Part shown: piece after piece, positions 20,559-49,444 of the stretch
Layout of the letters: every line of letters begins with the position of its first letter
Numbering within the stretch: position 1 is the stretch's first letter
DNA from: Acidobacteriota bacterium
GTDB lineage: Bacteria > Acidobacteriota > Vicinamibacteria > Vicinamibacterales > UBA2999
Length of the DNA: 63,510 nt
Direction: 5' to 3'
Assembly: GCA_016213695.1 (NCBI GenBank)
Contig: JACQZV010000098.1
Coordinates: 1 to 63,510 of the forward strand
Made by a program: the position numbers and the translations under genes
The notes under the pieces: generated by a model
The model's database searches: none
Seen by the model: only the letters and a program-made list of their open reading frames with translations
Told to the model about the DNA's origin: nothing

Positions 20559-20576
20559 GGGCAGAAGGGACTATAT

Positions 20577-20625
20577 CAGGAGACAGGAGTCAGGCGACAG
20601 GAGTCAGGAGATAGGCGTCAGGAGG
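20577..20625. repeat. Heptamer tandem repeat (CAGGAGT/A x7)
   Basis: caggaga caggagt caggcga caggagt caggaga taggcgt caggagg. Confidence 0.8.
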
Positions 20626-36426: not shown

Positions 36427-39159
36427 TCAGGCGGCGCCGATCGCCTGGGCGCCTTCGGGCGGTTCGAGTCCGTAGCGCACGCGCTTCAGATAGAGGCCTT
36501 TGCGCGACACGCCGAGCAGGGCGGCCGTCTCCTCCATGCGTCCGCCGGTCGTGCGGATCGCATGCTGGATCATCGCGCGCTCGAGGTGCTGGACGGCTGC
36601 GGGCAGCGGCTGATCGATGCGGACGACCAGCTCGGTCGGGTCGAGCACGCGCTCGGACGCGGGGACGGTTCGGCGCGACGCGGCGATGTCGGCTGACAGA
36701 TGTTCGGGCATCAGGACGGCGTTGGTTTCGGCCAGCGCCGCCATGCGCCGCATTTCGTTGGCGAGCTGCCGCACGTTGCCCGGCCACCGGTAGAGCACCA
36801 GATATTCCATCGTCTCTTCGGCGAGGCGGAGCTGTCCCTTGGCGTATTCGTGCGCGTGTTTCTGCAGGTAGTGGTGGGCGAGCGGCGGGATTTCGACGCG
36901 GCGCTCGCGGAGCGGCGGCACGTGCAGGTGGACGATGTTGAGGCGGTAGAAGAGGTCCTCGCGGAGCCGTCCCTGCGCGACGAGGGCGTCGAGGTCGGCG
37001 TTGGTGGCGACGATGACGCGGACGTCGGCGCGCACCGGCTGCACGTCGCCGATTGGATGGACCTCGTTGGATTCGAGGAAGCGCAGCAGCTTCGGCTGCA
37101 CCTCGAGCGTGGTTTCGCCGATCTCGTCGAGGAAGAGCGTGCCGCCGGTGGCGGCGCGAATGACGCCGGGGAAGTGCTCGGTGGCGCCGGTGAACGACCC
37201 TTTGCGGTGGCCGAAGAGCTGCGAATCGAGCATGTCCTTCGGCACGCTGCTGCAGTTGAACGGCAAAAACGTGGCGGCCGCGCGGTTCGAATAGCCGTGG
37301 ATGGTGCGCGCCAGCACTTCCTTGCCGGTGCCGGTTTCGCCGGTGATGAGGACCGGGACCGTGGTGGGCGCGATGCGGCGCGCGGTGGCGAGGAGCGCCT
37401 GCATCTCCTCGGCGAGGAAAAGGGCGCCGGCCTGTTCTTCGATGGGCGGGGCGGGCCAGAGGGCGGCGCGGTTGCGTTCCTCCTCGCGGGCCTGCTCGAG
37501 CGCGAGGGCGTGGCGGCCCATGCGCAGCACGTCGGCCAGGAGGATGGCCTTGGCGGGATCGCCGGGGATCGTGCAGACGAGCGTGAGGTGCTTCTTGCGA
37601 TCGACGCCGAGCGGCAGGACGACGGTCGTGTCGGAGGCGTTGGGCGCGGCGGCGTTCTCACGTGTTTCGACAAGCTTCGCGTCGGGCGAGCAGGCGAGGG
37701 CGTCGATGGCGAACTGCATTTCTTCGCCGAGCAGGCGCGGGCGATGGGCGAGGTCGGTGAAGGCGGCGAGCGAATCGGCGACGCATTCGGCGGTGCCGGC
37801 GCCGTGCGGCGTCGGCGGGGGCGTCGTGTCGGGCTGGGAGTCTGATGGGTTGTCGTCCATTTCCAGGCGAACGGACACGATGCCCTGACCGGCCCATAGT
37901 CGAAGTGCCCGATCCCGAAGCTGCTGCTCCAACGGCGTTGCAAGGCCATGCAGTACAAGCGCCGATGCGTAGTAGTACTGTGCCTGAAGTTCCCTGATGC
38001 TTGTGACATGGAGTTCGTCGGCGCGGACGAGACACAGCGACGCATTATTGAACTCTTGGGATCGTGCCCCTGCGTGGGCAGCAGTCAAGTAAATGGATCC
38101 CTTGAGCGGCACGTCGCTCCCTTGCAAGTAACTTGCGGCTGCTGCATCCAGTGATCGGACGGCTTCGGCAAACTGTCCCTGTCTTATCAAGAGTTGTGCC
38201 GTTGTTATTGCTGCCCATCGCACCTGGTAAAACGAAGCAACCCGGTCGGTCTGCCCAATACCCTGTGAAACAAACCGAAGCGTGTTCTCACAATCCTCGA
38301 GTTCACCGAGAGCTAAGTGCACCCTTGCGAGACCGACAGCTACGCCCACCCTAGTGAACAGGGATGTCTTCTTGTCATTCAGCAGCAGGGAGAACGTTCT
38401 CTTTGCCCTATCGAATTCACCCGCTAGTAGTTGTATGTGGCCAATATTGCTGTCGGCGTTCACTTCGGTTTGGACGTATCCGATCCGGCCTGCGACGAGT
38501 TTCGCCGATCGAAGAAGTTGGGCTGCGTTGCTGAACTCGCAGCGCAATATCGATATACATCCACGATTCAGAAGCAGCAAAGACGCCAACCAGGCATTTG
38601 ACGAAGCCTGCAGCAACGATTCGGCGATACTGCAGTGCCGCTGTGCCTCATCCAAGCGTCCTGTCTGGCCTTCCAGTACGGATACACATATGTGGAGGTA
38701 AGCGGTGGCGGCAGGAACACCTGCTCGATTCACGGTTCGCCTCGCGTCGTTCAGGGCCGTCAGGACGTTACTGATAGGGCCGCTTTCAATTAGGAGTCTC
38801 AGCAGATGCAGGTATGCCCAGGCAGTCAGTTCTACTTCCCTCGACTCCTGTGCAAGGTAGACCGCAGACTGGGCGTGGCGGATCGCGGAAGCCAAATCTC
38901 CACGGCGCCAGTTAACAGTTGCGATTGCTGACTCAGCTTGAGATCTTACAGAAGGCGCTGATGGTGGATGGCAGTCTAGCTCCGCCAAGCGCGCCGCCTC
39001 TTCGAGCTCACTCGTTAGCGTTAAGGCAGTCGCCACAATCACACGATGTCGCGGCTCGAGGCCTCTCCGCTCCTCTTCTGTGCAGGCCGAAACGTGAAGT
39101 AGCTGCCGAAAGTCACCCTGTCTGAATAGTCTCGCTGCTGCTTCGTAACTGGCGCCCAT
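36427..39159 (-). CDS. Sigma54-dependent enhancer-binding protein with long N-terminal TPR-like sensor
   Basis: GETGTGKE, SQLFGHRKGSFTGA, LFLDEIGE, REDLFYRLN, WPGNVRQL, Fis-type HTH; ~430-aa helical N-terminus with no receiver domain; GGAGAGG RBS. Confidence 0.9.
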   Translation of the reverse strand: MGASYEAAARLFRQGDFRQLLHVSACTEEERRGLEPRHRVIVATALTLTSELEEAARLAELDCHPPSAPSVRSQAESAIATVNWRRGDLASAIRHAQSAVYLAQESREVELTAWAYLHLLRLLIESGPISNVLTALNDARRTVNRAGVPAATAYLHICVSVLEGQTGRLDEAQRHCSIAESLLQASSNAWLASLLLLNRGCISILRCEFSNAAQLLRSAKLVAGRIGYVQTEVNADSNIGHIQLLAGEFDRAKRTFSLLLNDKKTSLFTRVGVAVGLARVHLALGELEDCENTLRFVSQGIGQTDRVASFYQVRWAAITTAQLLIRQGQFAEAVRSLDAAAASYLQGSDVPLKGSIYLTAAHAGARSQEFNNASLCLVRADELHVTSIRELQAQYYYASALVLHGLATPLEQQLRDRALRLWAGQGIVSVRLEMDDNPSDSQPDTTPPPTPHGAGTAECVADSLAAFTDLAHRPRLLGEEMQFAIDALACSPDAKLVETRENAAAPNASDTTVVLPLGVDRKKHLTLVCTIPGDPAKAILLADVLRMGRHALALEQAREEERNRAALWPAPPIEEQAGALFLAEEMQALLATARRIAPTTVPVLITGETGTGKEVLARTIHGYSNRAAATFLPFNCSSVPKDMLDSQLFGHRKGSFTGATEHFPGVIRAATGGTLFLDEIGETTLEVQPKLLRFLESNEVHPIGDVQPVRADVRVIVATNADLDALVAQGRLREDLFYRLNIVHLHVPPLRERRVEIPPLAHHYLQKHAHEYAKGQLRLAEETMEYLVLYRWPGNVRQLANEMRRMAALAETNAVLMPEHLSADIAASRRTVPASERVLDPTELVVRIDQPLPAAVQHLERAMIQHAIRTTGGRMEETAALLGVSRKGLYLKRVRYGLEPPEGAQAIGAA

Positions 39160-39192
39160 CGCACCTCTCCGAGAACGTTACGAGATGGCCCG

Positions 39193-41127
39193 TCAGGCCT
39201 TCTGGTTTGGGAATGACACCACGTTTGAGGAAGTGTTTGCGACGAGGGATGAGATCCGACTGGCGAGGGCAGAGCCAACGTGCTCGAACGTGTAGCGATG
39301 GCCTTCGTTAAAGGCATCCTTCTTGGCGGAGTATGCCGTTAGCACTCCCATCAAGCTGTCGCCTTGGACGAGCGGCGTGCTGAGGGTACTGCGCAATGGA
39401 GGTGCAAAGAACCCGGCAATTTGTGCTAAGTCCAGTGATGCATCTGAGTTAACTGACGCGCGACGATTCGCCGCGGTCCAGCCAGTGATTCTCTCGCCCA
39501 GCTTAATGGATAGGTTGTCCAAGAGGTGCTGGTTGTCTCCGTAAGCACTCACGCAGGTCAATATGTCTGCCGTGCTGTTATAAACAAATACCGCATAAAT
39601 GGTCGCCGGAGTGAGTTGTCGCAGGTAATGACCGGCACTCTGCAGTGCCGTCGCGGTCGAAGTCGCTCTCGCGATGTCCCTTGAACAGGTGTCCAGGAGC
39701 GTAGTTTCGGATGCATTCGCACGAATGTGCCGCAACGGTGCGGCCGTGTCGTCAATGGACGTTGTGAGTCCAGCCGCATCGATGATGCTGCGAGCGTCCT
39801 GGCCAGCCTGAATGGCGACGGGCGCGATCTCTTCGTACGCGTTGATGAACGTATCAACCACGAAGGGGTCGTACATCGTACCTCGGCTCTGACGAATTAT
39901 CGCGAACGCCTCATCGGTGCCCAGACGTGGACGATACGGTCGGTCGGATGTGAGGGCGTCAAAACAATCGACCACCGAGAGAATCCGTGCGCCTAGCGGA
40001 ATATCGGTTCCGGATATTCCTGTGGGATACCCCGTCCCGTCCCAGCATTCGTGATGGTGACGAACGATCGGGACGACGGGGTAGGGAAATCTGACAGAGG
40101 AGAGGAGATCGGCGCCAATGTCGGCATGGCGCTTCATCTTCTCGAACTCGGCAGCGCTAAGCTTCCCTGGTTTGTTCAGGATGTGTTCAGGGATGGCGAG
40201 TTTGCCCATGTCGTGGAGTAAAGCGGCGGTCGTAATGGCCTGCAGTTGCCGTTCCTCCGTAACACCGAGACGTTTCGCGAGTTCGACTGCAAACACCTGA
40301 ACCCGTCGGATGTGGCCGTGAGTGATCTGGTCTTTGGCATCTACAGCCATAGCCAGGGCCTCGATTGTGGACATGTAGAGGTCATTGAGCTGGACCACGT
40401 GCCGGTTAGCATCCTCGACCCGACCCAATGTCGACCGAAAGGTGTAGTACGAAATCAGGAGCAGCGGGATGATGATACTTAGGACCGTAACGTCTATCTG
40501 ATCCGTGTAAGCAACAATCAGCATTGCGAGCGAGCCGCCGACAAAATAATTGATGCTCGTACCGGGGAAATTGTTCGCCCAGAGTCGCACAACGCGTTCT
40601 CGGCGTTCGACCGCTAATGCACCTGCAACGAGACCGGTGTTGATGATGAAATACAAGAAAATGAACGCGAATACCGGAGTGATTAGTTGAGAAATGTCGT
40701 GACGGCCGATCTGTCCCGGGTGGGCGCCCGACAAATAGAAGAACGCCTCGCTTGCTAACCGAATTGCAATAGCGGGTGCGGTTCCGTTGAAGAGCACCTT
40801 CAGGGGCGATCTTCTCATTCGGTCTAGCCAGAAGGAGATGACTAGGGCGTCTAGAACGACGATGATGGTCCCAGCTGCGGGACCAAAGAGTAATACCGCG
40901 GTGAAGATGAAAGTTTCCGATACGGAAAGCCGGGCCTGTAGCCCAGGGACTCTTACCGTGAACGAACCGGTGAACAGAGTCAGGGCCGCCAAGACAAGCC
41001 ACTCAAGTCCCGGCGGGTCTAGTGACACTTGCCACAGGGATTGCGCGACTACGAAGAGGCCGGTCGCAATTACGACCGTTAGATATTGATGTCGGCGGCG
41101 TTCACTCGCCTTGGGTGTAACAGACAC
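39193..41127 (-). CDS. Membrane-anchored HD-GYP phosphodiesterase with C-terminal GAF domain
   Basis: ~6 N-terminal TM segments; DAKDQITHGHIRRV, LLHDMGK, HHHECWDGTGYPTG, VDCFDALTSDRPYR; GAF-like tail. Confidence 0.9.
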   Translation of the reverse strand: MSVTPKASERRRHQYLTVVIATGLFVVAQSLWQVSLDPPGLEWLVLAALTLFTGSFTVRVPGLQARLSVSETFIFTAVLLFGPAAGTIIVVLDALVISFWLDRMRRSPLKVLFNGTAPAIAIRLASEAFFYLSGAHPGQIGRHDISQLITPVFAFIFLYFIINTGLVAGALAVERRERVVRLWANNFPGTSINYFVGGSLAMLIVAYTDQIDVTVLSIIIPLLLISYYTFRSTLGRVEDANRHVVQLNDLYMSTIEALAMAVDAKDQITHGHIRRVQVFAVELAKRLGVTEERQLQAITTAALLHDMGKLAIPEHILNKPGKLSAAEFEKMKRHADIGADLLSSVRFPYPVVPIVRHHHECWDGTGYPTGISGTDIPLGARILSVVDCFDALTSDRPYRPRLGTDEAFAIIRQSRGTMYDPFVVDTFINAYEEIAPVAIQAGQDARSIIDAAGLTTSIDDTAAPLRHIRANASETTLLDTCSRDIARATSTATALQSAGHYLRQLTPATIYAVFVYNSTADILTCVSAYGDNQHLLDNLSIKLGERITGWTAANRRASVNSDASLDLAQIAGFFAPPLRSTLSTPLVQGDSLMGVLTAYSAKKDAFNEGHRYTFEHVGSALASRISSLVANTSSNVVSFPNQKA

Positions 41128-41153: not shown

Positions 41154-41183
41154 TTAGTCGCCCCAAACAATTATTCTTCGCAC
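41154..41183 (-). other. Isolated IIVWGD-stop unit: relic S8 tail or 9-aa micro-ORF (MRRIIVWGD)
   Basis: Minus strand reads GGGGG-AAATA-GTG CGA AGA ATA ATT GTT TGG GGC GAC TAA; out of frame with S8 (stops 49 nt apart). Confidence 0.4.
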
Positions 41184-41202
41184 TATTTCCCCCGAATCTG
41201 CG

Positions 41203-42873
41203 TTAGTCGCCCCAGACGGTGGTGTCGCCCCAGACGGTGGTGTCGCCCCAGACGGTGGTGTCGCCCCAGACGGCGGTGTCGCCCCAGACGGCGGTGTCGC
41301 CCCAGACGGTGGTGTCGCCCCAGACGGTGGTGTCGCCCCAGACGGCGGTGTCGCCCCAGACGGCGGTGTCGCCCCAGACGGTGGTGTCGCCCCAGAGTGT
41401 TATTGCGCCAAAGACAACTCCACCGCTCGAAACCGTCTCCCCCGCAATAACCGTCACCGGCGGCCCTTCGGAGTCAGCCGCACTCAGCGCCGCCACGACG
41501 TTCAAGCTGCCGGCCCCCGCACGCAGCAACCCAATCGGCATCGCCTCCGCGCTCGCCTGCAGAGTCGCCCGCACCTGGAGCGGATTGAGCGCGCGCGCGT
41601 CGAGCAGCAGCGCCGTCGCCCCCGAGACCACCGCGGCCGACATGCTCGTCCCCGACAACTGCAGCCGCTTGCCCTCGGCTGTATCGATGACGAGCTCCGG
41701 GTGCTCCCGCGCAAGCGTCGACCCCGGCGCCAGCAGCCCCACAACCTTGTTCCCCGGCGCCACCAGATCCGGCTTGATGAGGCCGTCAAACAGCGTCAGG
41801 CCACGCGAGCTGTACGTCGTGATCACGTCGTCAGACCGCTGCGCCGTCCCCTTCGTGTTGAGCGCGCCCACCGTGATCGCATAGGGCGAATTGCCCGGCA
41901 CCGTGATCCCGCCGAATACCTCGGTGCCGGCCGCATCCTTACCGTGGTTGCCGGCCGACGCCACCACGACGAGGCCCGCGCGATACGCGCGCTCCACCGC
42001 CTGGCACAACGGATCGTCGGCGCACCGCTGCAGCACCGGCCCGCCGAGCGACAGGTTGATCACCTTGATGCCGTAGCGATCGCGGTTCGCAATCGCCCAG
42101 TCGATCGCGTCAATCACGTCGGCCGCATAGCCGGCGCCGTTCGCGTCGAGCACCTTCAGGTTGATGAGACGCGCGCCCGGCGCGACACCGCGCGTCGGGT
42201 CCTTCGAGTTCGCCCCGGACGCCGCGATGATCCCTGCCACGTGCGTGCCGTGTCCGTTGTCGTCGCCGGCGTTCCCGCGCACCCCGGCGCCGGCGTCCGC
42301 GCAGTCGGTCTTCCCGACCTTCTGGCCCGATCGTTTGGACGCCGCCGTGAAGTCAACGCTCACGACAATGCGGCCGCGGAGCTGCGGCAGATCCGCAATG
42401 CCCGTGTCGACGACTGCCACGCCGATGCCGTCGCCGGTCACCCCGTCCGCGCCCGGCGCCCACCCGTCGGTCCACACCTGGTCGGCGCCAATCGCCACGG
42501 TGGTCACCGCCATCTGCGGCTGCACCCGGTAGTTGCTCGACAAGGCGCCGAGCCGGCCGTCGGCCGCCAGCGCGCTCAGCGCGCCGGCCGGCACCGCAAC
42601 CACCGCGCCGGTCTTCAGCCGCTTGCCGACGCGCAGGCCGTGCCGCGCCGCCAGCGTGTCGATCTGCGCCTGTGTCCCGGGGACGATGACGCAGGTCTCT
42701 TCAGTGGTGCCAGCTTGGAGCCGCTCGGTCAGGTCCTCGGAAAGGCGCGCACGCCGGCCCTGCGCCAACGCGTCGGTCCCGGAAAGCAGGAGTACCGCAC
42801 ACAGCAGGGCATGGAGTGTCCGGCTGCTGCCAGACACGACGAGTGACCAACGATTTCCGGGGCACGGGACCAA
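41203..42873 (-). CDS. Secreted S8 subtilase (AprX-like) with C-terminal (xxxWGD)11 repeat tail
   Basis: VAVVDTG, HGTHVAG, SAGN, SGTSMSAAVVSG; signal-peptide-like LLCAVLLLSGTDALAQ; start uncertain (42873 or GTG 42837). Confidence 0.92.
   Translation of the reverse strand: MVPCPGNRWSLVVSGSSRTLHALLCAVLLLSGTDALAQGRRARLSEDLTERLQAGTTEETCVIVPGTQAQIDTLAARHGLRVGKRLKTGAVVAVPAGALSALAADGRLGALSSNYRVQPQMAVTTVAIGADQVWTDGWAPGADGVTGDGIGVAVVDTGIADLPQLRGRIVVSVDFTAASKRSGQKVGKTDCADAGAGVRGNAGDDNGHGTHVAGIIAASGANSKDPTRGVAPGARLINLKVLDANGAGYAADVIDAIDWAIANRDRYGIKVINLSLGGPVLQRCADDPLCQAVERAYRAGLVVVASAGNHGKDAAGTEVFGGITVPGNSPYAITVGALNTKGTAQRSDDVITTYSSRGLTLFDGLIKPDLVAPGNKVVGLLAPGSTLAREHPELVIDTAEGKRLQLSGTSMSAAVVSGATALLLDARALNPLQVRATLQASAEAMPIGLLRAGAGSLNVVAALSAADSEGPPVTVIAGETVSSGGVVFGAITLWGDTTVWGDTAVWGDTAVWGDTTVWGDTTVWGDTAVWGDTAVWGDTTVWGDTTVWGDTTVWGD
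41206..41403. repeat. In-frame 18-bp tandem repeat x11 encoding T(T/A)VWGD
   Basis: gtcgccccagacgg(t/c)ggt x10 plus one divergent ITLWGD unit. Confidence 0.97.
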
Positions 42874-42891: not shown

Positions 42892-43152
42892 TCAGGTTCG
42901 GGCGGGTCTCAGGACAAAGGTGGCCGCCGACGCCGACGTTGAAAAGGGCTGGGGCTGGAACCCCAGGCCGTAGAGCGATTCGACGAGCACGCGCTGCGAC
43001 CCGCCCATCGTGCGGATCGTCAGCAGACGCCCGTCGCGTATCCGGTAGTAGACCGTGCGGCGTGAGACCTTCAGGAGCTGCGCGGCCTGATCGATCGACA
43101 CGCTTCGTCCGAGACGCAGTTCAGAAGCGGACGCTGATAATTCGGTATGCAC
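42892..43152 (-). CDS. Small excisionase-like (HTH_17/MerR-type) DNA-binding protein
   Basis: VSIDQAAQLLKVSRRTVYYRIRDGRLLTIR. Confidence 0.8.
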   Translation of the reverse strand: MHTELSASASELRLGRSVSIDQAAQLLKVSRRTVYYRIRDGRLLTIRTMGGSQRVLVESLYGLGFQPQPFSTSASAATFVLRPART

Positions 43153-43175: not shown

Positions 43176-43190
43176 GCAGGGTTGGTGCCA
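43176..43190 (-). promoter_or_regulatory. Sigma54 -24/-12 promoter for the HTH-S8-HD-GYP-EBP operon
   Basis: Minus strand TGGCAC-CAACC-CTGC (GG-N10-GC), ~24 nt before the HTH start. Confidence 0.65.
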
Positions 43191-43368
43191 CATCCGGGCG
43201 CGAAGGGGCGCAGCGGGGTAAGCGACCGACACTCAGTGGGTTACAGCAGGCGGATACCTGCGGCCGGCAGCGAGGGGGTGGCGCCAGTGGTCAGGGGCTT
43301 GGCCGCCCGGGCCGCCGGCTGCCCGTTGCAGCAGTGGGCAATCTGCACAGCGATGTGTTGAAATCTGC

Positions 43369-45144
43369 ATGGATTCACCGAGCGGCCAAGAAATTGACCA
43401 GGGTGGCAGAAACCTGCGCGTAAAACGCTCCGTCATCGCGGCTGTCGCCGGCGCCGCGCTCCTGCTCGCTTTGGCGCTGCTGTTCCTGCGGCGTCCCGGT
43501 GGTCCAGCGCCACCAGTGAGTCCGGCGCGCGGCGGCCAGATTGTTGCGTCGATCCGCGCCGAGCCGCGGTCGTTCAACCGCCTCGTCGCCCGCGACCAGT
43601 CCACCGACCTCCTGACGTTCCTGACCCAGGGCCGGCTCGTACGGATCAACCGCGCCTCCTTCGATCTGGAGCCCTGGCTGGCCGAGCGGTGGGAGTCGAG
43701 CGCCGACGGACGCGTGCACACGCTGCACCTGCGGCCCGGCGTGACCTGGTCCGACGGGATGCCGTTCACCTCAGCCGACGTGCTGTTCTCGGTGCAGGCG
43801 GTCTTCGACCGGCGCGCCCAGAGCGTGCTGGCCAGCAGCCTCGCCGCCGGCGGGCAGCCGATTCGCGCCGCGGCGCCCGACGCGCAGACGGTCGTCATCA
43901 CCTTTCCTGTGCCGTCCGGCCCCGGGCTGCGCCTGCTCGACCAGTTGCCAATCCTGCCGAAGCACAAGCTGCAGGGAGCGCTCGCGGCCGGGACGTTTGC
44001 CTCCGCGTGGAATGCCGCGACGCCACCGGCCGAGATCGTCGGCACGGGCCCCTTCGTCGTGCGCGAGTACCAGCCGGGACAGCGCGTCGTGCTCGACAGG
44101 AACCCGCGCTACTGGCGGCGCGCCCCCGACGGCGCCGCGCTCCCGTACCTCGATCGCATCGTCCTCGAGATCGTGCCCGAGCAGAACGCGGAGCTGCTGC
44201 GGCTGCAGTCGGGGGGCACCGACCTCTCGTCGAGCGAGCTGCGTCCGGAGGATTACGCTCCGGTCAAACAGGCGGAGGAGCAGGGACGGCTGCGGCTCGT
44301 CGAGCTCGGCGTCGGTCCGGATGCCGACGCGTTCTGGTTCTGCCTCAAGCCCGAGGTCAAGGGCAAAGACCCCCGTTTCGTGTTCGTGCAGCGGCCGGAG
44401 TTTCGGGCGGCCATCTCGCATGCGGTCGACCGCGAGGCATTCGCCCACACCGTGTTCCTGGGCGCCGCGGTGCCCGTGTGGGGTCCCGTCACGCCCGGCA
44501 ACACGCAGTGGTTCTGGCCCGACGTGCCCCGTTATGCGTACGACGAGGCGCGCGCGCGCGATCTGCTCGCGGGCCTTGGCCTCGAGGATCGCGATCACAA
44601 CGGGGTGGTTGAGGACGCGCGCGGTACCGAAGCACGCTTCACCGTCATCACGCAGCGGGGCATCGGCTGGTACGAGCGGGGCACCGCCGTGCTCCGCGAG
44701 AGCCTGGCGCGCGTCGGCATCGCGATCGATGTCGCGCCGCTCGAATTCGGCGCGATGATCCAGCGGATGCTCGCGTGCGACTACGACGCCATGTACTACC
44801 GGCCGGTCTTCACGGATCTCGACCCGGCCGGCAACCTCGACTTCTGGCTCACCTCCGGCTCCGCGCATGTGTGGAACCTGGAGCAGCGCGTGCCCGCCAC
44901 CGAGTGGGAGCGGCGGATCGACACGCTGATGCTCGAGCAGGCGGCGACAATCGATCCCGAGCGGCGGCACGAGCAGTTCAACCTCGTGCAGCGCATCGCC
45001 GGCGAGAACCTGCCGGTGCTCTACTTCGCGGCGCCGCGGCTCTACTACGGGCACAGCGTCCGCCTGCGCGGCGTCGTCCCGTCCGTCCTGCGGCCGCCGG
45101 TGTTGTGGAACGCCGACAGTCTCAGCGTGGCGCCCGGTGAGTAG
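43369..45144 (+). CDS. ABC transporter substrate-binding protein, family 5 (peptide/nickel)
   Basis: LEPWLAERW, LRPGVTWSDGMPFTSADVLFS, GTGPF, RAAISHAVDR; N-terminal membrane anchor; start uncertain. Confidence 0.88.
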   Translation: MDSPSGQEIDQGGRNLRVKRSVIAAVAGAALLLALALLFLRRPGGPAPPVSPARGGQIVASIRAEPRSFNRLVARDQSTDLLTFLTQGRLVRINRASFDLEPWLAERWESSADGRVHTLHLRPGVTWSDGMPFTSADVLFSVQAVFDRRAQSVLASSLAAGGQPIRAAAPDAQTVVITFPVPSGPGLRLLDQLPILPKHKLQGALAAGTFASAWNAATPPAEIVGTGPFVVREYQPGQRVVLDRNPRYWRRAPDGAALPYLDRIVLEIVPEQNAELLRLQSGGTDLSSSELRPEDYAPVKQAEEQGRLRLVELGVGPDADAFWFCLKPEVKGKDPRFVFVQRPEFRAAISHAVDREAFAHTVFLGAAVPVWGPVTPGNTQWFWPDVPRYAYDEARARDLLAGLGLEDRDHNGVVEDARGTEARFTVITQRGIGWYERGTAVLRESLARVGIAIDVAPLEFGAMIQRMLACDYDAMYYRPVFTDLDPAGNLDFWLTSGSAHVWNLEQRVPATEWERRIDTLMLEQAATIDPERRHEQFNLVQRIAGENLPVLYFAAPRLYYGHSVRLRGVVPSVLRPPVLWNADSLSVAPGE

Positions 45145-46126
45145 CTTCCTGGCCCGGCGCCTGTTGTTTGCGCTCGCGCTCGTGGTCGTCGTGTCGTCGT
45201 CGGCGCTGCTGCTGGCGCGGCTGGCGCCCGGAGACGTCACCGCCGAGCTCGGCCCGTTTGCCGGCGCCGCCGAGATTGCCGGCACGCGCGCGCGGTTCGA
45301 TCTTGACCGCAACCCCGCGTCGCAATGGGTCGTCTGGATGGCGCGGGCCGCGCGCTTCGAGTTCGGCGACTCGTTTCTCTACAACCGGCCCGTGCGCGGG
45401 CTCGTGCTGCGCGCCGCCGCCAATACGGCGGTGCTGGCGCTCGCCGCGCTGGCGCTGGCGACGCTTGTCGGGATACCGCTCGGCATCGTGGCGGGCAGCC
45501 GGCAGGGAACGGGCGCCGCCGTGATCCGCGCGGCGTCGCTCGTCTGCCTCTCGGTGCCGCCGCTCCTCACCTCGCTCCTGCTCGTGTTCGTCGCCGCCAC
45601 CACTCGCTGGTTTCCTCTCGGCGGGATGACGTCGGTGGCCGCCGTCGGCCCGAGCGGGCCGGCCTGGCTGGCCGACGTCGCCGTCCACCTGCCGCTGCCG
45701 GTGCTCGCGCTCGCGCTGCCGATTGCCGCCACGTTCGAGCGGCTGCAGGCACAGGCGATCACCGACGCGCTGCGCCAGCCGTTTGCGCTCGCCGCGGTGG
45801 CGCGGGGCCTGTCGGCCCGCGACGTCGTGCTCCGCCACGCGTGGCGCGTGTCTCTCCGTCCTCTCTGCGGCGTGTACGGGCTGGCGGTCGGCGCGCTGCT
45901 GTCGGGGTCGTTCGTCGTGGAGTTCGTGACCGCGTGGCCGGGCCTCGGGCGCCTCACCTACGAGGCGCTGCGCGCGCGCGATATCTATCTGGTGGCCGGG
46001 TGCGCGGCGATGGGCGGCGTGTTTCTCGCGCTCGGCAGCCTCGTCGGCGACCTGTTGCTCCTCGCGGCCGATCCCCGCCTGCGTGAGGCGGCCCGGGCCC
46101 GTTCCGGCGAAAGGCAGACCGCATGA
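45137..46126 (+). CDS. Peptide ABC permease (OppB/DppB-like)
   Basis: LARLAPGD, FEFGDSF, AVARGLS...HAWR (EAA-like loop), TAWPGLGRL. Confidence 0.9.
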   Translation: MSSFLARRLLFALALVVVVSSSALLLARLAPGDVTAELGPFAGAAEIAGTRARFDLDRNPASQWVVWMARAARFEFGDSFLYNRPVRGLVLRAAANTAVLALAALALATLVGIPLGIVAGSRQGTGAAVIRAASLVCLSVPPLLTSLLLVFVAATTRWFPLGGMTSVAAVGPSGPAWLADVAVHLPLPVLALALPIAATFERLQAQAITDALRQPFALAAVARGLSARDVVLRHAWRVSLRPLCGVYGLAVGALLSGSFVVEFVTAWPGLGRLTYEALRARDIYLVAGCAAMGGVFLALGSLVGDLLLLAADPRLREAARARSGERQTA

Positions 46127-47097
46127 GGCGCGCCGGGCAGGGGCTGCTCGCGCTCGTCGTGCTCGGCGCGGCCGCCGCGCCCTGGCTCGCGCCCAATCCG
46201 CCCGATCGGACCTTCCCGGCCGCACTCTATGCGCCGCCCACGCCTGTCAGGCTGCGGCACGCCGGCCTGCGGGCGCCGTTCATCTATCCGCAGCGCGTCG
46301 TCAGCGCGCTTGAGCGGCGATTCGAAGAGGACGCGACGCGTCCCGTGCCGCTGCAGTGGTTCCGCGACGGCCGGCTGGTCACCGTGCCCGACGCCGGCGG
46401 CGGTCCGCTGCTGCTGCTCGGCGCCGACAGCCTCGGCCGCGACACGTTCTCGCGCCTGCTGTACGGCGCGCGCACCTCGCTCGTGCTCGCCGCCGCGTCC
46501 ACGCTGCTCGCGCTGCTTGTCGGAGCCCTCATCGGCGGCATCGCCGGGTATGCCGGCGGCGTCGCCGACGAAACGCTGTCGCGGCTGACGGACTTCGTGC
46601 TCGTGCTGCCGGCCATGTACGTAGCGCTCGCGCTGCGCGCCGTCATGCCGCTCGTGCTGCCGCCGGCCACCGTGTTCGCGCTGCTGACGGCCATTTTTGC
46701 GCTACTGGGGTGGCCGGTCGTCGCCCGCGGCGTGCGCGCCATCGTCGCCTCCGAGCGCGAGCGCGAATACGTCGTCGCCGGCCGGGCGCTCGGCGCCACG
46801 CCGTCGCGCCTGCTCGCGCGGTACCTCCTGCCCGCGGCCGGCGGGTACCTGGCGGTGCAGGCCACGCTGCTCCTGCCCGCATTCATCCTGGCCGAGGCCA
46901 CGCTCTCGTACGTCGGCCTCGGCTTTCCGGCGACGGTGCCCACCTGGGGCACGATGCTGCAGGAGGCGGCCAACGTGTCCCTGCTCGGCGGGGCGCCGTG
47001 GGTGCTCGCTCCGGCCGCAGCGATCTTCGTCGTCGTGCTTGCGGTGAACCTGGTGGTGCAGGGAACCGGCCGGGCGCCTGTACAATTGGAGCCATGA
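46123..47097 (+). CDS. Peptide ABC permease (OppC/DppC-like)
   Basis: LLGADSLGRDTFSRLLYGARTSL, EYVVAGRALGA, EATLSYVGLG, WGTML. Confidence 0.9.
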   Translation: MRRAGQGLLALVVLGAAAAPWLAPNPPDRTFPAALYAPPTPVRLRHAGLRAPFIYPQRVVSALERRFEEDATRPVPLQWFRDGRLVTVPDAGGGPLLLLGADSLGRDTFSRLLYGARTSLVLAAASTLLALLVGALIGGIAGYAGGVADETLSRLTDFVLVLPAMYVALALRAVMPLVLPPATVFALLTAIFALLGWPVVARGVRAIVASEREREYVVAGRALGATPSRLLARYLLPAAGGYLAVQATLLLPAFILAEATLSYVGLGFPATVPTWGTMLQEAANVSLLGGAPWVLAPAAAIFVVVLAVNLVVQGTGRAPVQLEP

Positions 47098-48005
47098 AGC
47101 GGTTCGCCGGCATCTTCACGCCGATCGCGACGCCGTTTGCTGCCGACGACAGCCTCGACGAGGCAGGGCTGCGATCGAATGTGGCGCGGTGGATGGCGAC
47201 GCCGCTCACCGGCCTCGTCGTCCTCGGCTCAAACGGCGAGGCGCCGCAGCTCGATGACGAGGAAGCCGACCGCGTCATCGCCATCGCGCGCGCCGAAATG
47301 CCTCGGAACCGTCCCATGATCGTGGGCACCGGGCGCGAGGCCACCAGAGCCACGATCGCGGCCACCCGACGCGCGGCCGCCCTTGGCGCGGACGCGGCGC
47401 TCGTCCGGACGCCGTCGTTCTTCAAGGCGCAGATGACGACCGACGTCTTCGTACGGCATTACCTCGAGGTGGCCGAGGCGTCGCCAATCCCGGTCCTGCT
47501 CTACAACGTGACGATGTACACCGGTGTCAACCTGCCGCCCGACGCGGTGGCGACGCTGGCGACTCATCCCAACATCGTCGGCATGAAGGAGTCGGGAGGC
47601 GACCTCGCGCAGATCGCGGAATACATCGCGCGGACGCCGGACGACTGGACGGTGCTGGCAGGGTCGGCCGCCACCTTCTTTCCGGCGCTCTGCGCCGGGT
47701 GCGACGGCGCCGTCCTTGCGCTCGCGCAACTGGCGCCCGAGGCGTGCGTGAAGATGCGCGCGCTCGTGCAGGCGGGCCGTGTCGACGAGGCGCGGGCGCT
47801 GCAGCGCCGGCTCGCACCGCTGGCGCGATCGATCGGCGGCCAGCACGGCGTGCCCGCGCTGAAGGCCGCGCTCACCCTGATGGGCTACGCCGGCGGTGCT
47901 CCACGCCCGCCGCTGCGGGCCGTCGGGCCGCAGGTCGTTGACATCCTCAAATCGCAGCTCGATGCGTTGGGGCTGGTCGAGCAGGTACCACAGTTGCAGC
48001 AGTGA
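47094..48005 (+). CDS. DHDPS/DapA-family aldolase (HOGA-like GSNGE motif)
   Basis: TPIATPF, LGSNGE, LLYNV, VGMKESGG. Confidence 0.88.
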   Translation: MKRFAGIFTPIATPFAADDSLDEAGLRSNVARWMATPLTGLVVLGSNGEAPQLDDEEADRVIAIARAEMPRNRPMIVGTGREATRATIAATRRAAALGADAALVRTPSFFKAQMTTDVFVRHYLEVAEASPIPVLLYNVTMYTGVNLPPDAVATLATHPNIVGMKESGGDLAQIAEYIARTPDDWTVLAGSAATFFPALCAGCDGAVLALAQLAPEACVKMRALVQAGRVDEARALQRRLAPLARSIGGQHGVPALKAALTLMGYAGGAPRPPLRAVGPQVVDILKSQLDALGLVEQVPQLQQ

Positions 48006-49444
48006 CCGCCATGCGCGTCTGGCTTGCGATTGCCGTCGTTCTCGCCGCCTCCTGCGCCACCAATCCCGTCACCGGCCGGCGCGAATTGAACTTCATGAGC
48101 GAGGCGCAGGAAATCGCCATCGCCAACGAGTCCGAGCCGCAGATCAAGGAAGAGATGGGGGTCTACAACGACCCCGAGCTGCAGCGCTACGTCAGCGAGA
48201 TCGGCTGGCGGATGGCGAAGATGTCGGAGCGCCCGCAGCTGCCGTGGCGGTTCACGGTGGTCGACGTGCCGGCCGTGAACGCATTTGCGGTACCGGGAGG
48301 TGCCGTCTACGTGACGCGCGGCATCCTGCCGTTTCTCGACACCGAGGCGGAGCTGGCGGGCGTTATCGGCCACGAAATCGGCCACGTCACGGCCCGTCAC
48401 TCCGCGCAGCAGTACACGCGGCAGGTGTCCGGACAGGTCGGGCTCGTCGCGCTCGGCATCTTCGTCCCTGCCGCCCGTCCGTTCGGGGATCTGTCGGGTC
48501 AGGCGCTCGGCGTGCTCTTCCTCAAATACGGGCGCGATGACGAGCTGCAGGCCGACCAGCTGGGGGCGCGCTACGAATCACGGCACGGATGGGATCCGGC
48601 GGCCATCCCTGCGTTTCTGTCGACGCTCGGACGTCTGGACGAAGCGGCGGGCGACCGCCGCGGCGTGCCGAACTGGCTGTCCACGCATCCCGAGCCGCTC
48701 GCGCGCGTGAAGGACATTCAGCCGACCGTGCAGGAGCTGAAAGCGGCCGGCGGGTCGTTTGCGACCAACCGCGAGGCGTTCCAGCAGCGCATCGACGGCA
48801 TCGTCTACGGCGACAATCCGGAGCAGGGGATCGCGCGCGGCAGCACCTTTCTGCACCCGGGCCTGCGGTTCCGGATCGACTTCCCGGCCAGGTGGGAGAT
48901 CGCCAACAGCCCGCAGCAGGTGGTGGCGAAAGCGCCGGGCGCCGACATCTTCATGATCCTGCAGCTCGTGGAGCAGCCACGCGGCCGGAACATCCAGGAG
49001 ATCGCGCTGAACAGCATGAACCGCGCCGGGTTCCGCTCGGTCAGCGGCGAACGGACGACCATCAGCGGGCTGGATGCGTTTGTCGGCGTCTACGAGGGGC
49101 AGATCGCGGATCTCGGGGCCGGAACGGCACGCGCCGCGCACATTGCGTACGACAGCAAGGTGTTTGTCGTGGCGGGTCTGGCTCAGAACAGCGCGTTCCA
49201 GCAGGCCGACGGCGCCTTTCTCGGGAGCCTCCGCTCGTTCCGTTCGCTGTCGGCCGCCGAAGCGGAGAACATCCGGCCGAACCGCGTCGATTTCTACGTC
49301 GTGCGCGCGGGGGACACGTGGGCGTCGATTGCCGAGCGCTCCGGCGGCGTGATCACCCCTGCCACGCTGGCGGTCATGAACAACGCCCAGGCCGGCTCCA
49401 CGCCCCAGGTCGGGAGCCGCATCAAGATCGTGGTGGGTGGTTAG
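48002..49444 (+). CDS. M48 family metalloprotease lipoprotein with C-terminal LysM-like domain
   Basis: Lipobox LAASC, NAFAVPGG, HEIGH, YGRDDELQAD, STHP, YVVRAGDTWASIA; alternative ATG at 48011. Confidence 0.88.
   Translation: MTAMRVWLAIAVVLAASCATNPVTGRRELNFMSEAQEIAIANESEPQIKEEMGVYNDPELQRYVSEIGWRMAKMSERPQLPWRFTVVDVPAVNAFAVPGGAVYVTRGILPFLDTEAELAGVIGHEIGHVTARHSAQQYTRQVSGQVGLVALGIFVPAARPFGDLSGQALGVLFLKYGRDDELQADQLGARYESRHGWDPAAIPAFLSTLGRLDEAAGDRRGVPNWLSTHPEPLARVKDIQPTVQELKAAGGSFATNREAFQQRIDGIVYGDNPEQGIARGSTFLHPGLRFRIDFPARWEIANSPQQVVAKAPGADIFMILQLVEQPRGRNIQEIALNSMNRAGFRSVSGERTTISGLDAFVGVYEGQIADLGAGTARAAHIAYDSKVFVVAGLAQNSAFQQADGAFLGSLRSFRSLSAAEAENIRPNRVDFYVVRAGDTWASIAERSGGVITPATLAVMNNAQAGSTPQVGSRIKIVVGG

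Follow-up and report, generated by a model that had tools for sequence, protein, structure and literature searches.

We consider that the C-terminal tail of an S8 subtilase encoded by a 63,510-nt stretch (contig JACQZV010000098.1) of DNA from an uncultured soil/groundwater Acidobacteriota bacterium (GCA_016213695.1) is best explained as a young, re-expanded case of a family-wide module in which identical short Trp-Gly peptides are fused to a secreted subtilase. This stretch, taken as a whole, is referred to here as the window, and the subtilase gene lies on its minus strand at 41203-42873. Our preferred reading of the tail, to which we would give a probability of roughly 0.45, is that it represents a cis-fused multi-copy array from which W-peptides are clipped to supply a sensing cassette; here we infer the cleavage, the products and the receptors from the genes and their context. 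We prefer this reading because it explains selection acting on whole units, the presence of a neighbouring micro-gene, the missing fold of the tail, the variable period of its repeats and the genomic context in which it is found.

The tail consists of ITLWGD followed by ten 18-bp units and then a TAA stop codon at 41203-41205. The residues leading into the array are ...GAITLWGD and the units follow in the order TTVWGD TAVWGD TAVWGD TTVWGD TTVWGD TAVWGD TAVWGD TTVWGD TTVWGD TTVWGD. Tandem Repeats Finder reports the array at 41206-41396 (10.6 copies, 97% matches, score 354), a score far above chance expectation, and together with the translation this confirms the layout put forward in the original prediction, which was made from the sequence alone and described ITLWGD plus ten exact units ending directly at the stop. 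The array is in frame and its last unit abuts the stop exactly, as is the case in many relatives. That prediction also confined the variation between units to a single nucleotide, and this holds, with one base (ACC or GCC, specifying Thr or Ala) being all that distinguishes the DNA of the ten units. Read on the plus strand from 41206 to 41368, the variable base is T,T,T,C,C,T,T,C,C,T. The resulting variant order, T[AATT][AATT]T, fits with one 72-bp block duplication, so that the block duplication proposed earlier is a fair reading of it. Differences between the units of this array amount to 0 synonymous and 4 nonsynonymous (Thr/Ala) changes and, because of this, we regard the array as young. 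It has been expanded or homogenised very recently, and the recent expansion that had been suspected is borne out by comparison with the arrays of relatives, in which the proportion of synonymous change (pS) is ~0.29.

The number of units needs to be read with care, since the source genome is a fragmented metagenome-assembled genome (MAG) of short-read type (203 contigs, 3.75 Mb, 68.7% GC) and the k=31 unitigs available for the locus do not span the array. These come from the sole public run that contains the locus, a groundwater metagenome which is the probable source sample, and they are broken within the array. Comparing repeat number in reads had been proposed as a check on the array, and relative to a flank depth of ~6 the unitig depths were 2.9 for TT, 2.4 for TA, 3.6 for AA, 2.4 for AT and 5.7 for A-units, against assembled counts of 3, 2, 2, 2 and 4, respectively. 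The depth ratios are near the assembled counts and the array length is therefore approximately right. The array may be about the size assembled or may exceed it by 1-3 units, or part of the depth may come from relatives present in the sample; the agreement is a rough one, and exact count and order are not fixed by k=31 unitigs. In this run (X1) it is the Ala-type units and the AA junctions that are deeper than assembled. Three further metagenomes (X2-X4) contain similar 18-bp repeat words at high depth, which presumably belong to relatives.

The tail belongs to a much larger set. Arrays of h-h-W-[G/S/A]-x units (h, hydrophobic) with periods of 6-12 residues are present at the C-terminus of more than 100 Acidobacteriota S8 homologues. 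The best 120 homologues share 45-74% identity and are labelled mostly as Vicinamibacterales or Acidobacteria (lineage assignments of relatives are MAG labels throughout), and nearly all of the full-length members among them finish in tandem h-h-W-[G/S/A]-x units, with NILWGNAE, DTVVWGES, TIVWSEAD and AIIWADxx as examples. In 111 proteins with at least four motifs the modal period was 8 residues in 47, 6 in 35, and 10 and 12 in nine each; they contain 4-23 copies of the motif (median 10) and Asp or Glu is C-terminal in 64. The period therefore differs (6, 8, 10 or 12 residues) among orthologues in which the h-h-W-G core is constant. All 30 proteins returned by a tail-only search were S8 peptidases, including some labelled Polarisedimenticolaceae, Candidatus Angelobacter and Bryobacteraceae. 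When the 72-residue tail was compared with 1.84 billion representative sequences using phmmer, 2126 matches were obtained, and all 17 of the W-type matches among the top 150 representatives were S8 proteins or apparent S8 fragments. No non-protease carrier of a W-type tail was found in the window's genome or in the tail-only database searches. The only other W-type carrier in that genome is a second S8 protease (contig C169:11710-13185, minus strand). Its tail comprises ~15 10-residue units of the DNIVWSTSSD type, and the 5' end of its gene is lost at the contig end. When species-representative genomes were scanned, 80 related loci were found, nearly all of them labelled as Acidobacteriota and including Vicinamibacterales, Terriglobia, Bryobacteraceae, Pyrinomonadaceae, Blastocatellia and Solibacteraceae. 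Members of the protease family can be detected in their thousands (5355 proteins at E <= 0.001 out of 8000 candidates scored). Full-text searches of the literature found no paper on the W-type repeat or its gene cassette, and the W-type array family is both large and undescribed. We do not claim a pherotype-like hyper-diversification of the units, because NILWG-type units are common to many Vicinamibacterales.

The strongest indication of what the arrays are for comes from the way in which their units vary. We compared the codons of each unit with the consensus of its own array in 25 arrays, made up of 24 relatives and the window. Single-base differences comprised 257 synonymous and 61 nonsynonymous changes, a synonymous share of 81% where 21% would be expected under neutrality (binomial p 1.7e-112), with pS of 0.29, a proportion of nonsynonymous change (pN) of 0.019 and pN/pS of 0.065. 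Spacer positions, which are those outside the conditioning of unit detection, behave in the same way (108 synonymous and 27 nonsynonymous changes, pN/pS 0.07, p 1e-46). Given this synonymous excess, spacers included, whole units are kept identical by selection. The arrays of the relatives are old, and each residue of each unit is held constant by purifying selection. At locus L006, for example, 15 STMVWG units differ by 25 synonymous and 0 nonsynonymous changes, and the TSAVWG units of L068 use Ser codons of both the AGY and TCN types. The fresh, dimorphic (T/A) array of the window contrasts usefully with these old, codon-scrambled ones. Folded repeats usually tolerate change at surface positions, and the rungs of solenoids drift at their surface, whereas units that are identical as protein but synonymously diverged are the textbook mark of selection acting on every unit that is released. 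By analogy, the pattern of unit identity seen here would be the signature of polyubiquitin-like or multi-core precursors rather than of ordinary solenoid rungs, and tandem cores under purifying selection are indeed what is found at the level of the family. Polyubiquitin and the polyproteins that give rise to neuropeptides or antifreeze glycoproteins resemble the family arrays in having head-to-tail units that are protein-identical and synonymously different; they differ in being unrelated in sequence and organism, and here the units are of 6-12 residues and attached to an enzyme.

These data also bear on whether the array has any specific function at all. It could be a slippage-prone low-complexity linker, or its length and order could be an assembly artefact. 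The units of the window are DNA-identical, as recent replication slippage predicts, the array sits in a fragmented short-read MAG without a spanning unitig, and tails are frameshifted or missing in the close homologues P0001, P0005, P0007 and P0047. We nonetheless regard this as very improbable for the window. The tail is present in more than 100 homologues from several Acidobacteriota lineages, the within-array pN/pS reports selection, unitig depths roughly match the assembled copies and, as in many relatives, the array keeps the reading frame and stops precisely where a unit does. At the level of the family, such an explanation is largely excluded. Out-of-frame or truncated tail regions were observed in the four homologues just named, in P0085 and P0092, and at loci L007, L047 and L061. 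As many of these sequences are from long-read MAGs, they may represent homopolymer or repeat assembly errors and not tail loss.

A single unit-like peptide is also encoded separately from the protease. Downstream of the S8 gene in the window lies a 9-codon micro-ORF, GTG-CGA-AGA-ATA-ATT-GTT-TGG-GGC-GAC-TAA, with GGGGGA (41188-41193) 4 nt upstream of it and the start of an HD-GYP gene 27 nt past its end. Searches of Rfam revealed no known RNA element between the S8 gene and its neighbour, and no intrinsic terminator was found between the S8 and HD-GYP genes. The sequence GCCGATA follows the micro-ORF stop in the window and at two related loci, L001 and L085. A uniform scan of up to 400 nt past the S8 stop identified seven micro-ORFs in 6 of 60 loci (Table 1), against a background elsewhere in the scanned loci of 0.0011 per 400 nt. 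They occur in 6 of the 13 scanned loci that have HD-GYP directly downstream and in none of 42 others; with L085 added, the former becomes 7 of 14. The seven HD-GYP loci without a micro-ORF have no usable intergenic gap and, in most of them, the HD-GYP frame opens right after the S8 stop. Being absent from these and from the 42 loci without a downstream HD-GYP gene, the micro-ORF is ruled out as a family-wide trait. Its Ile and Val codons differ synonymously between genomes, and the peptide is therefore a conserved entity. The free end of the micro-peptide (W plus one or two residues) mimics that of the tail, and in the window both end in ...VWGD.

The genomic context points in the same direction. 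The operon in the window runs from a sigma-54-type element through genes for an HTH_17 protein, the S8 protease, the micro-ORF and a MASE9/HD-GYP/GAF protein to a sigma-54 activator with a tetratricopeptide repeat (TPR)-type region. L001 and L085 have the same gene order, HTH gene and sigma-54 activator included, and L001 carries TGGCAC-N5-CCGC at the position equivalent to the sigma-54-type element. An HD-GYP homologue lies within 4 kb of 36 of 84 related S8 loci (~1.1% by chance) and a homologue of the peptide-binding protein SBP_bac_5 within 4 kb of 17 of the 84 (~0.4% by chance), the chance values being estimated from the window's own genome. Both linkages occur in several Acidobacteriota lineages and in more than one gene arrangement and, because arrangements differ between lineages, the association of S8 protease, HD-GYP protein and importer argues for a functional linkage rather than inherited synteny. 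In the activator, Pfam identifies Sigma54_activat (2.2e-61), HTH_8 and TPR_MalT, the last of which barely reaches its threshold (45.8 bits vs a cut-off of 45). MASE9 is an uncharacterised sensor domain for which intramembrane ligand binding has been proposed (10.1101/2021.11.05.467447).

If our preferred reading is correct, the tail would be cut between units after export and removal of the pro-peptide, either by the enzyme itself or in trans. The h-h-W/small junction would resemble a subtilase P4-P1/P1' site, and clipping would yield many copies of one hexapeptide. These W-peptides, along with the directly translated micro-peptide, would then be read, as ligands or cues, by the importer and the sensors encoded alongside, coupling the output of the protease to cyclic di-GMP (c-di-GMP) turnover and sigma-54 transcription. 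It is possible, though we regard it as less likely than not, that these components form a new kind of peptide-sensing circuit in Acidobacteria. In such a circuit the subtilase would carry its own poly-signal, cut free by itself or by a partner, and the 9-codon gene would supply a like peptide. The readers would be the importer, the TPR-type sigma-54 activator and/or the MASE9 domain of the HD-GYP c-di-GMP phosphodiesterase, with feedback on the sigma-54-type operon promoter, and the T/A array of the window would be a snapshot of new signal variants arising.

The protein that carries the tail is an intact pre-pro S8 enzyme. It matches Peptidase_S8 (PF00082) over residues 147-445 (E 1.8e-49, 169 bits vs a cut-off of 21.8), and the columns containing D156 (VVDTG), H208 (HGTHVAG), N309 (AGNHG) and S410 (SGTSMS) are invariant or nearly so in a 104-sequence alignment. 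The hydrophobic N-terminus is common to its homologues. The closest solved structure is that of ProN-Tk-SP (3afg; E 1.5e-41 by sequence, 3.3e-30 in Foldseek), and Foldseek searches with the model of the window protein returned pro-subtilases only, with the pro-forms of Tk-SP, Tk-subtilisin and subtilisin E as the best matches for the propeptide region. In the AlphaFold2 (AF2) model, built from the same alignment, the catalytic domain mostly has predicted local distance difference test (pLDDT) values above 90 and most of the propeptide is confident. Between the catalytic domain and the tail is a short folded piece with strands at residues 473-476, 479-483 and 486-490 (pLDDT ~87-92). The window protein falls in none of the curated NCBIfam subfamilies (PatA/PatG, mycosin and others), and in NCBIfam and Pfam at E <= 1 it matched none of the PEP-CTERM, GlyGly-CTERM, LPXTG, T9SS CTD or RTX/T1SS models.

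Since the tail is attached to a protease, it could instead act upon that protease, as a pseudo-substrate or C-terminal pro-piece. Its h-h-W/G units would fill the active-site cleft or be trimmed stepwise, delaying or tuning activation, and the fragments would have no role of their own. Subtilisin prefers a large hydrophobic residue at P1, and h-h-W followed by a small residue would resemble a subtilase P3-P1/P1' site. Residues 551-555 are modelled as a paired strand (pLDDT ~59, above the rest of the tail), the C-terminal extensions of secreted subtilases are often autoprocessed away, and among the matches found the tail is confined to S8 enzymes. We think such a role improbable, however. The enzyme has an N-terminal propeptide, which normally gives latency, and one or two units would be enough for this purpose, yet 4-23 (median 10) are held identical by selection. 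A cytoplasmically translated micro-peptide and the linkage to sensors and importer would also be left unexplained.

Whether the tail folds is the question on which the alternatives most clearly diverge. The AF2 model of the window protein has pLDDT of ~30 over residues 497-548, and DSSP assigns almost no secondary structure to the tail. For the distant relative P0131, which has a degenerate tail and was modelled from an in-phase 33-sequence alignment of 6-residue-period tails, the tail has pLDDT of 22-32 and the catalytic domain is well predicted. The tail is thus predicted to be exposed or non-globular, and the structure prediction that had been suggested as a check found no confident folded repeat in either protein. 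There are nevertheless several observations that weigh against the tail being a released array. In sequences that repeat almost perfectly, a low pLDDT says little about disorder. The beta-helix repeats of YdcK and hexapeptide proteins resemble the units (V-[W]-G-D-[T/A]-x) except that they have Y/F instead of W, and some relatives with 8-residue units score above the gathering threshold of PF21300, the beta-roll of a grass antifreeze protein (P0012 41.8, P0016 34.6 and P0055 33.0 bits vs a cut-off of 30). Degenerate arrays with W-less units keep a 6n register in P0129-P0136, P0067 and P0062, which gives them a structural look; such arrays are found in Terriglobia-type relatives labelled Candidatus Angelobacter. 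Selection on the window's own units is not measurable, there being 0 synonymous differences, because the array is too young. The micro-ORF is limited to one sub-lineage, whereas the tail is family-wide, and the core of the micro-peptide, IIVW[G/S/T], is better conserved across genomes than the tail units and shows no obvious co-variation with them.

Several of these points would be expected if the tail were a structural beta-solenoid with ladders of Trp and no release of peptides; units of 6 residues would build a left-handed beta-helix-like prism and those of 8 residues a beta-roll. Such a tail might retain the enzyme at the envelope, bind a polymeric substrate, bring about oligomerisation or stabilise the protein, and secreted subtilases, Tk-SP among them, usually have accessory domains at the C-terminus. 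Among the top 150 phmmer matches, 93 were Y/F-type hexapeptide proteins (with units such as VYGDAx and E down to 5.6e-35), and these best non-S8 matches are placed by Pfam in the YdcK beta-solenoid (PF18836), Hexapep (PF00132) and Bactofilin families. Weak matches in the PDB are mostly to hexapeptide or gamma-carbonic-anhydrase-type beta-helices, though they are non-significant (E 0.35-1). When the hexapeptide rule, [LIV]-[GAED]-X2-[STAV]-X, is set against V-W-G-D-T-T/A, the V at position i and the T at i+4 agree with it, but Trp occupies i+1 where the rule wants G/A/E/D; YdcK-type repeats have Y/F there. We consider a solenoid unlikely on balance. AF2 usually models beta-solenoids well and gave the tail low confidence in two proteins, the window tail matches nothing in Pfam at E <= 10 (PF00132, PF18836 and PF21300 included) and the Hexapep score of P0131 is 14.7 bits, with the cut-off at 27. 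In addition, orthologues differ in period, a change that would be resisted if the fold were conserved, purifying selection on the spacers is as strong as on the core, which is unusual for solenoid rungs, and the conserved one-unit micro-ORF would have no role alongside a solenoid. Comparisons between repeat proteins also yield inflated E-values. Compared directly, the tail shares with YdcK and the transferase hexapeptide a six-residue period and an aliphatic-aromatic-G-D/N-small-x pattern, and differs in having Trp for Tyr/Phe, no match to the Pfam models, no predicted fold, relatives with periods of 8-12 residues and identical units. In the case of the Lolium perenne ice-binding beta-roll (PF21300, LbR_Ice_bind), the likeness lies in the 8-residue DTV[IV]WG relatives that exceed the gathering score, a match that may reflect repeat composition and implies no ice-binding role, and the 6-residue tail of the window is unmatched.

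Of the better-known subtilases, Tk-SP from Thermococcus kodakarensis (AprX-type) is the most similar, with a pre-pro layout, catalytic fold and extra C-terminal piece in common. Its extension is a folded beta-jelly-roll, however, while that of the window protein is made of identical 6-residue units without a confident fold, which in relatives are kept by selection. Tandem short cores, identical or nearly so, and an S8-type processing protease are shared with yeast alpha-factor/Kex2, with the fungal dikaritin precursor UstA and KexB, and with the cyanobactin system PatE-PatA/PatG. In plants, BURP-domain proteins combine an enzyme and core repeats in one polypeptide. What sets the window apart from the multi-copy precursors is that the protease itself carries the cores and that no leader or recognition sequences or modifying enzymes are conserved nearby. 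The logic of a poly-signal would be similar to that of polyubiquitin or alpha-factor/Kex2, but here with processing protease and cores in one polypeptide. That the tail represents repeated cores fused to their putative processing protease, along the lines of cyanobactins and dikaritins, had been proposed at the outset. The fusion of repeated cores gains indirect support from whole-unit selection, the micro-ORF, the lack of a confident fold and the importer/sensor linkage. Membership of the cyanobactin or dikaritin classes of ribosomally synthesised and post-translationally modified peptides is not supported: the PatA/PatG model (TIGR03895) gives the window protein 49.3 bits vs a cut-off of 421, and no modifying enzyme is conserved nearby. 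No heterocyclase or other tailoring gene was found near the window's S8 gene, where the neighbours are the HTH_17, HD-GYP, sigma-54 activator, MBL-fold and ATP-binding cassette (ABC) importer genes, and the same is true of L001 and L085.

RRNPP signalling in Bacillota (Phr/Rap, PapR/PlcR and SHP/Rgg) offers another comparison, as its precursor is secreted and matured by proteases. The window locus is similar in having an Opp-type importer beside it, which is a link made by gene proximity, and a predicted cytoplasmic regulator with a TPR-type region. It differs in that the regulator is a sigma-54 enhancer-binding protein and not an RRNPP-family TPR receptor, in that the host is diderm, and in that the partner found most consistently is a membrane HD-GYP enzyme.

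In soil, Acidobacteriota rank with the most abundant bacteria and, to our knowledge, almost nothing has been established about how they are regulated or how their cells communicate. Should the units prove to be released ligands, they would represent a new way to encode peptide signals, with protease and multi-copy precursor in one protein, and the first peptide-sensing circuit for this phylum. If the tail folds instead, secreted proteases would have a new accessory domain in the form of a beta-helix with a Trp ladder. In either case, arrays of short peptides held identical and linked to a one-unit micro-gene and to c-di-GMP/sigma-54 sensors are a rare signature.

Table 1. Features of the S8 protease locus in the window, and micro-peptides encoded at related loci
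Feature	Position	Strand	Basis or description
Sigma-54-type -24/-12 element, TGGCAC-N5-CTGC, 5' of the HTH gene	43176..43190	-	Consensus match only
HTH_17 DNA-binding protein, 86 aa, first operon gene	42892..43152	-	Pfam HTH_17, 30 bits
S8 subtilase gene, 556 aa	41203..42873	-	TTG start, GGAGG 6 nt upstream, TAA stop
Probable Sec signal peptide, residues 1-37 (...LLLSGTDALA/Q)	42763..42873	-	Inferred by reading the sequence
N-terminal propeptide, ~residues 38-125	42499..42762	-	AF2 pLDDT >90; Foldseek
S8 catalytic domain, D156 H208 N309 S410	41539..42435	-	Pfam, alignment
Folded beta-hairpin piece at catalytic domain-tail junction, residues 473-490	41404..41457	-	AF2
Tail, ITLWGD + 10 x (T[T/A]VWGD), residues 491-556	41206..41403	-	Translation, AF2
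Micro-ORF, 9 codons, MRRIIVWGD	41154..41183	-	GTG start, TAA stop, frame +1 relative to the S8 gene
Membrane MASE9/HD-GYP/GAF protein	39193..41127	-	Pfam HD_5 1.9e-40, GAF_2, MASE9
Sigma-54 enhancer-binding protein, N-terminal MalT-like TPR region (residues 1-560), without receiver domain	36427..39159	-	Pfam
Peptide-type ABC importer, SBP_bac_5 (43369-45144) + two permeases, divergent	43369..47097	+	Pfam
L001 micro-peptide, MHTLIIWGE			Shine-Dalgarno, same place
L006 micro-peptides (two), MRNQMIIVWS and MTQQIIVWT			Shine-Dalgarno, same place
L009 micro-peptide, MLVRAIIVWS			Shine-Dalgarno, same place
L011 micro-peptide, MVKRPIIVWS			Shine-Dalgarno, same place
L061 micro-peptide, MKTIIIWGE			Shine-Dalgarno, same place
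L085 micro-peptide, MKTLIVWGE			Shine-Dalgarno, same place; found beyond the 60-locus scan

Some further features of the region were observed. In the stretches that contain the sigma-54-type element, at 43176-43370 (minus strand) in the window and 5330-5530 in L001, the two loci also have AATTTCAACAC ... GCAGATT-like elements in common farther upstream, which are possible activator sites. The GC content falls to 0.53-0.60 at 37800-41000, compared with ~0.69 on both sides, and takes in the HD-GYP gene together with the 5' region of the activator gene, which encodes the TPR part; this low-GC stretch may be an exchanged sensor cassette or reflect a different codon regime. Downstream of the importer genes, at 48002-49444 on the plus strand, is a gene for a Peptidase_M48 protein with a C-terminal LysM domain. 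Tandem Repeats Finder also reports a second array in the window, at 20576-20624, which contains 7 copies of CAGGAGA and is additionally recognised with 14- and 21-bp periods.

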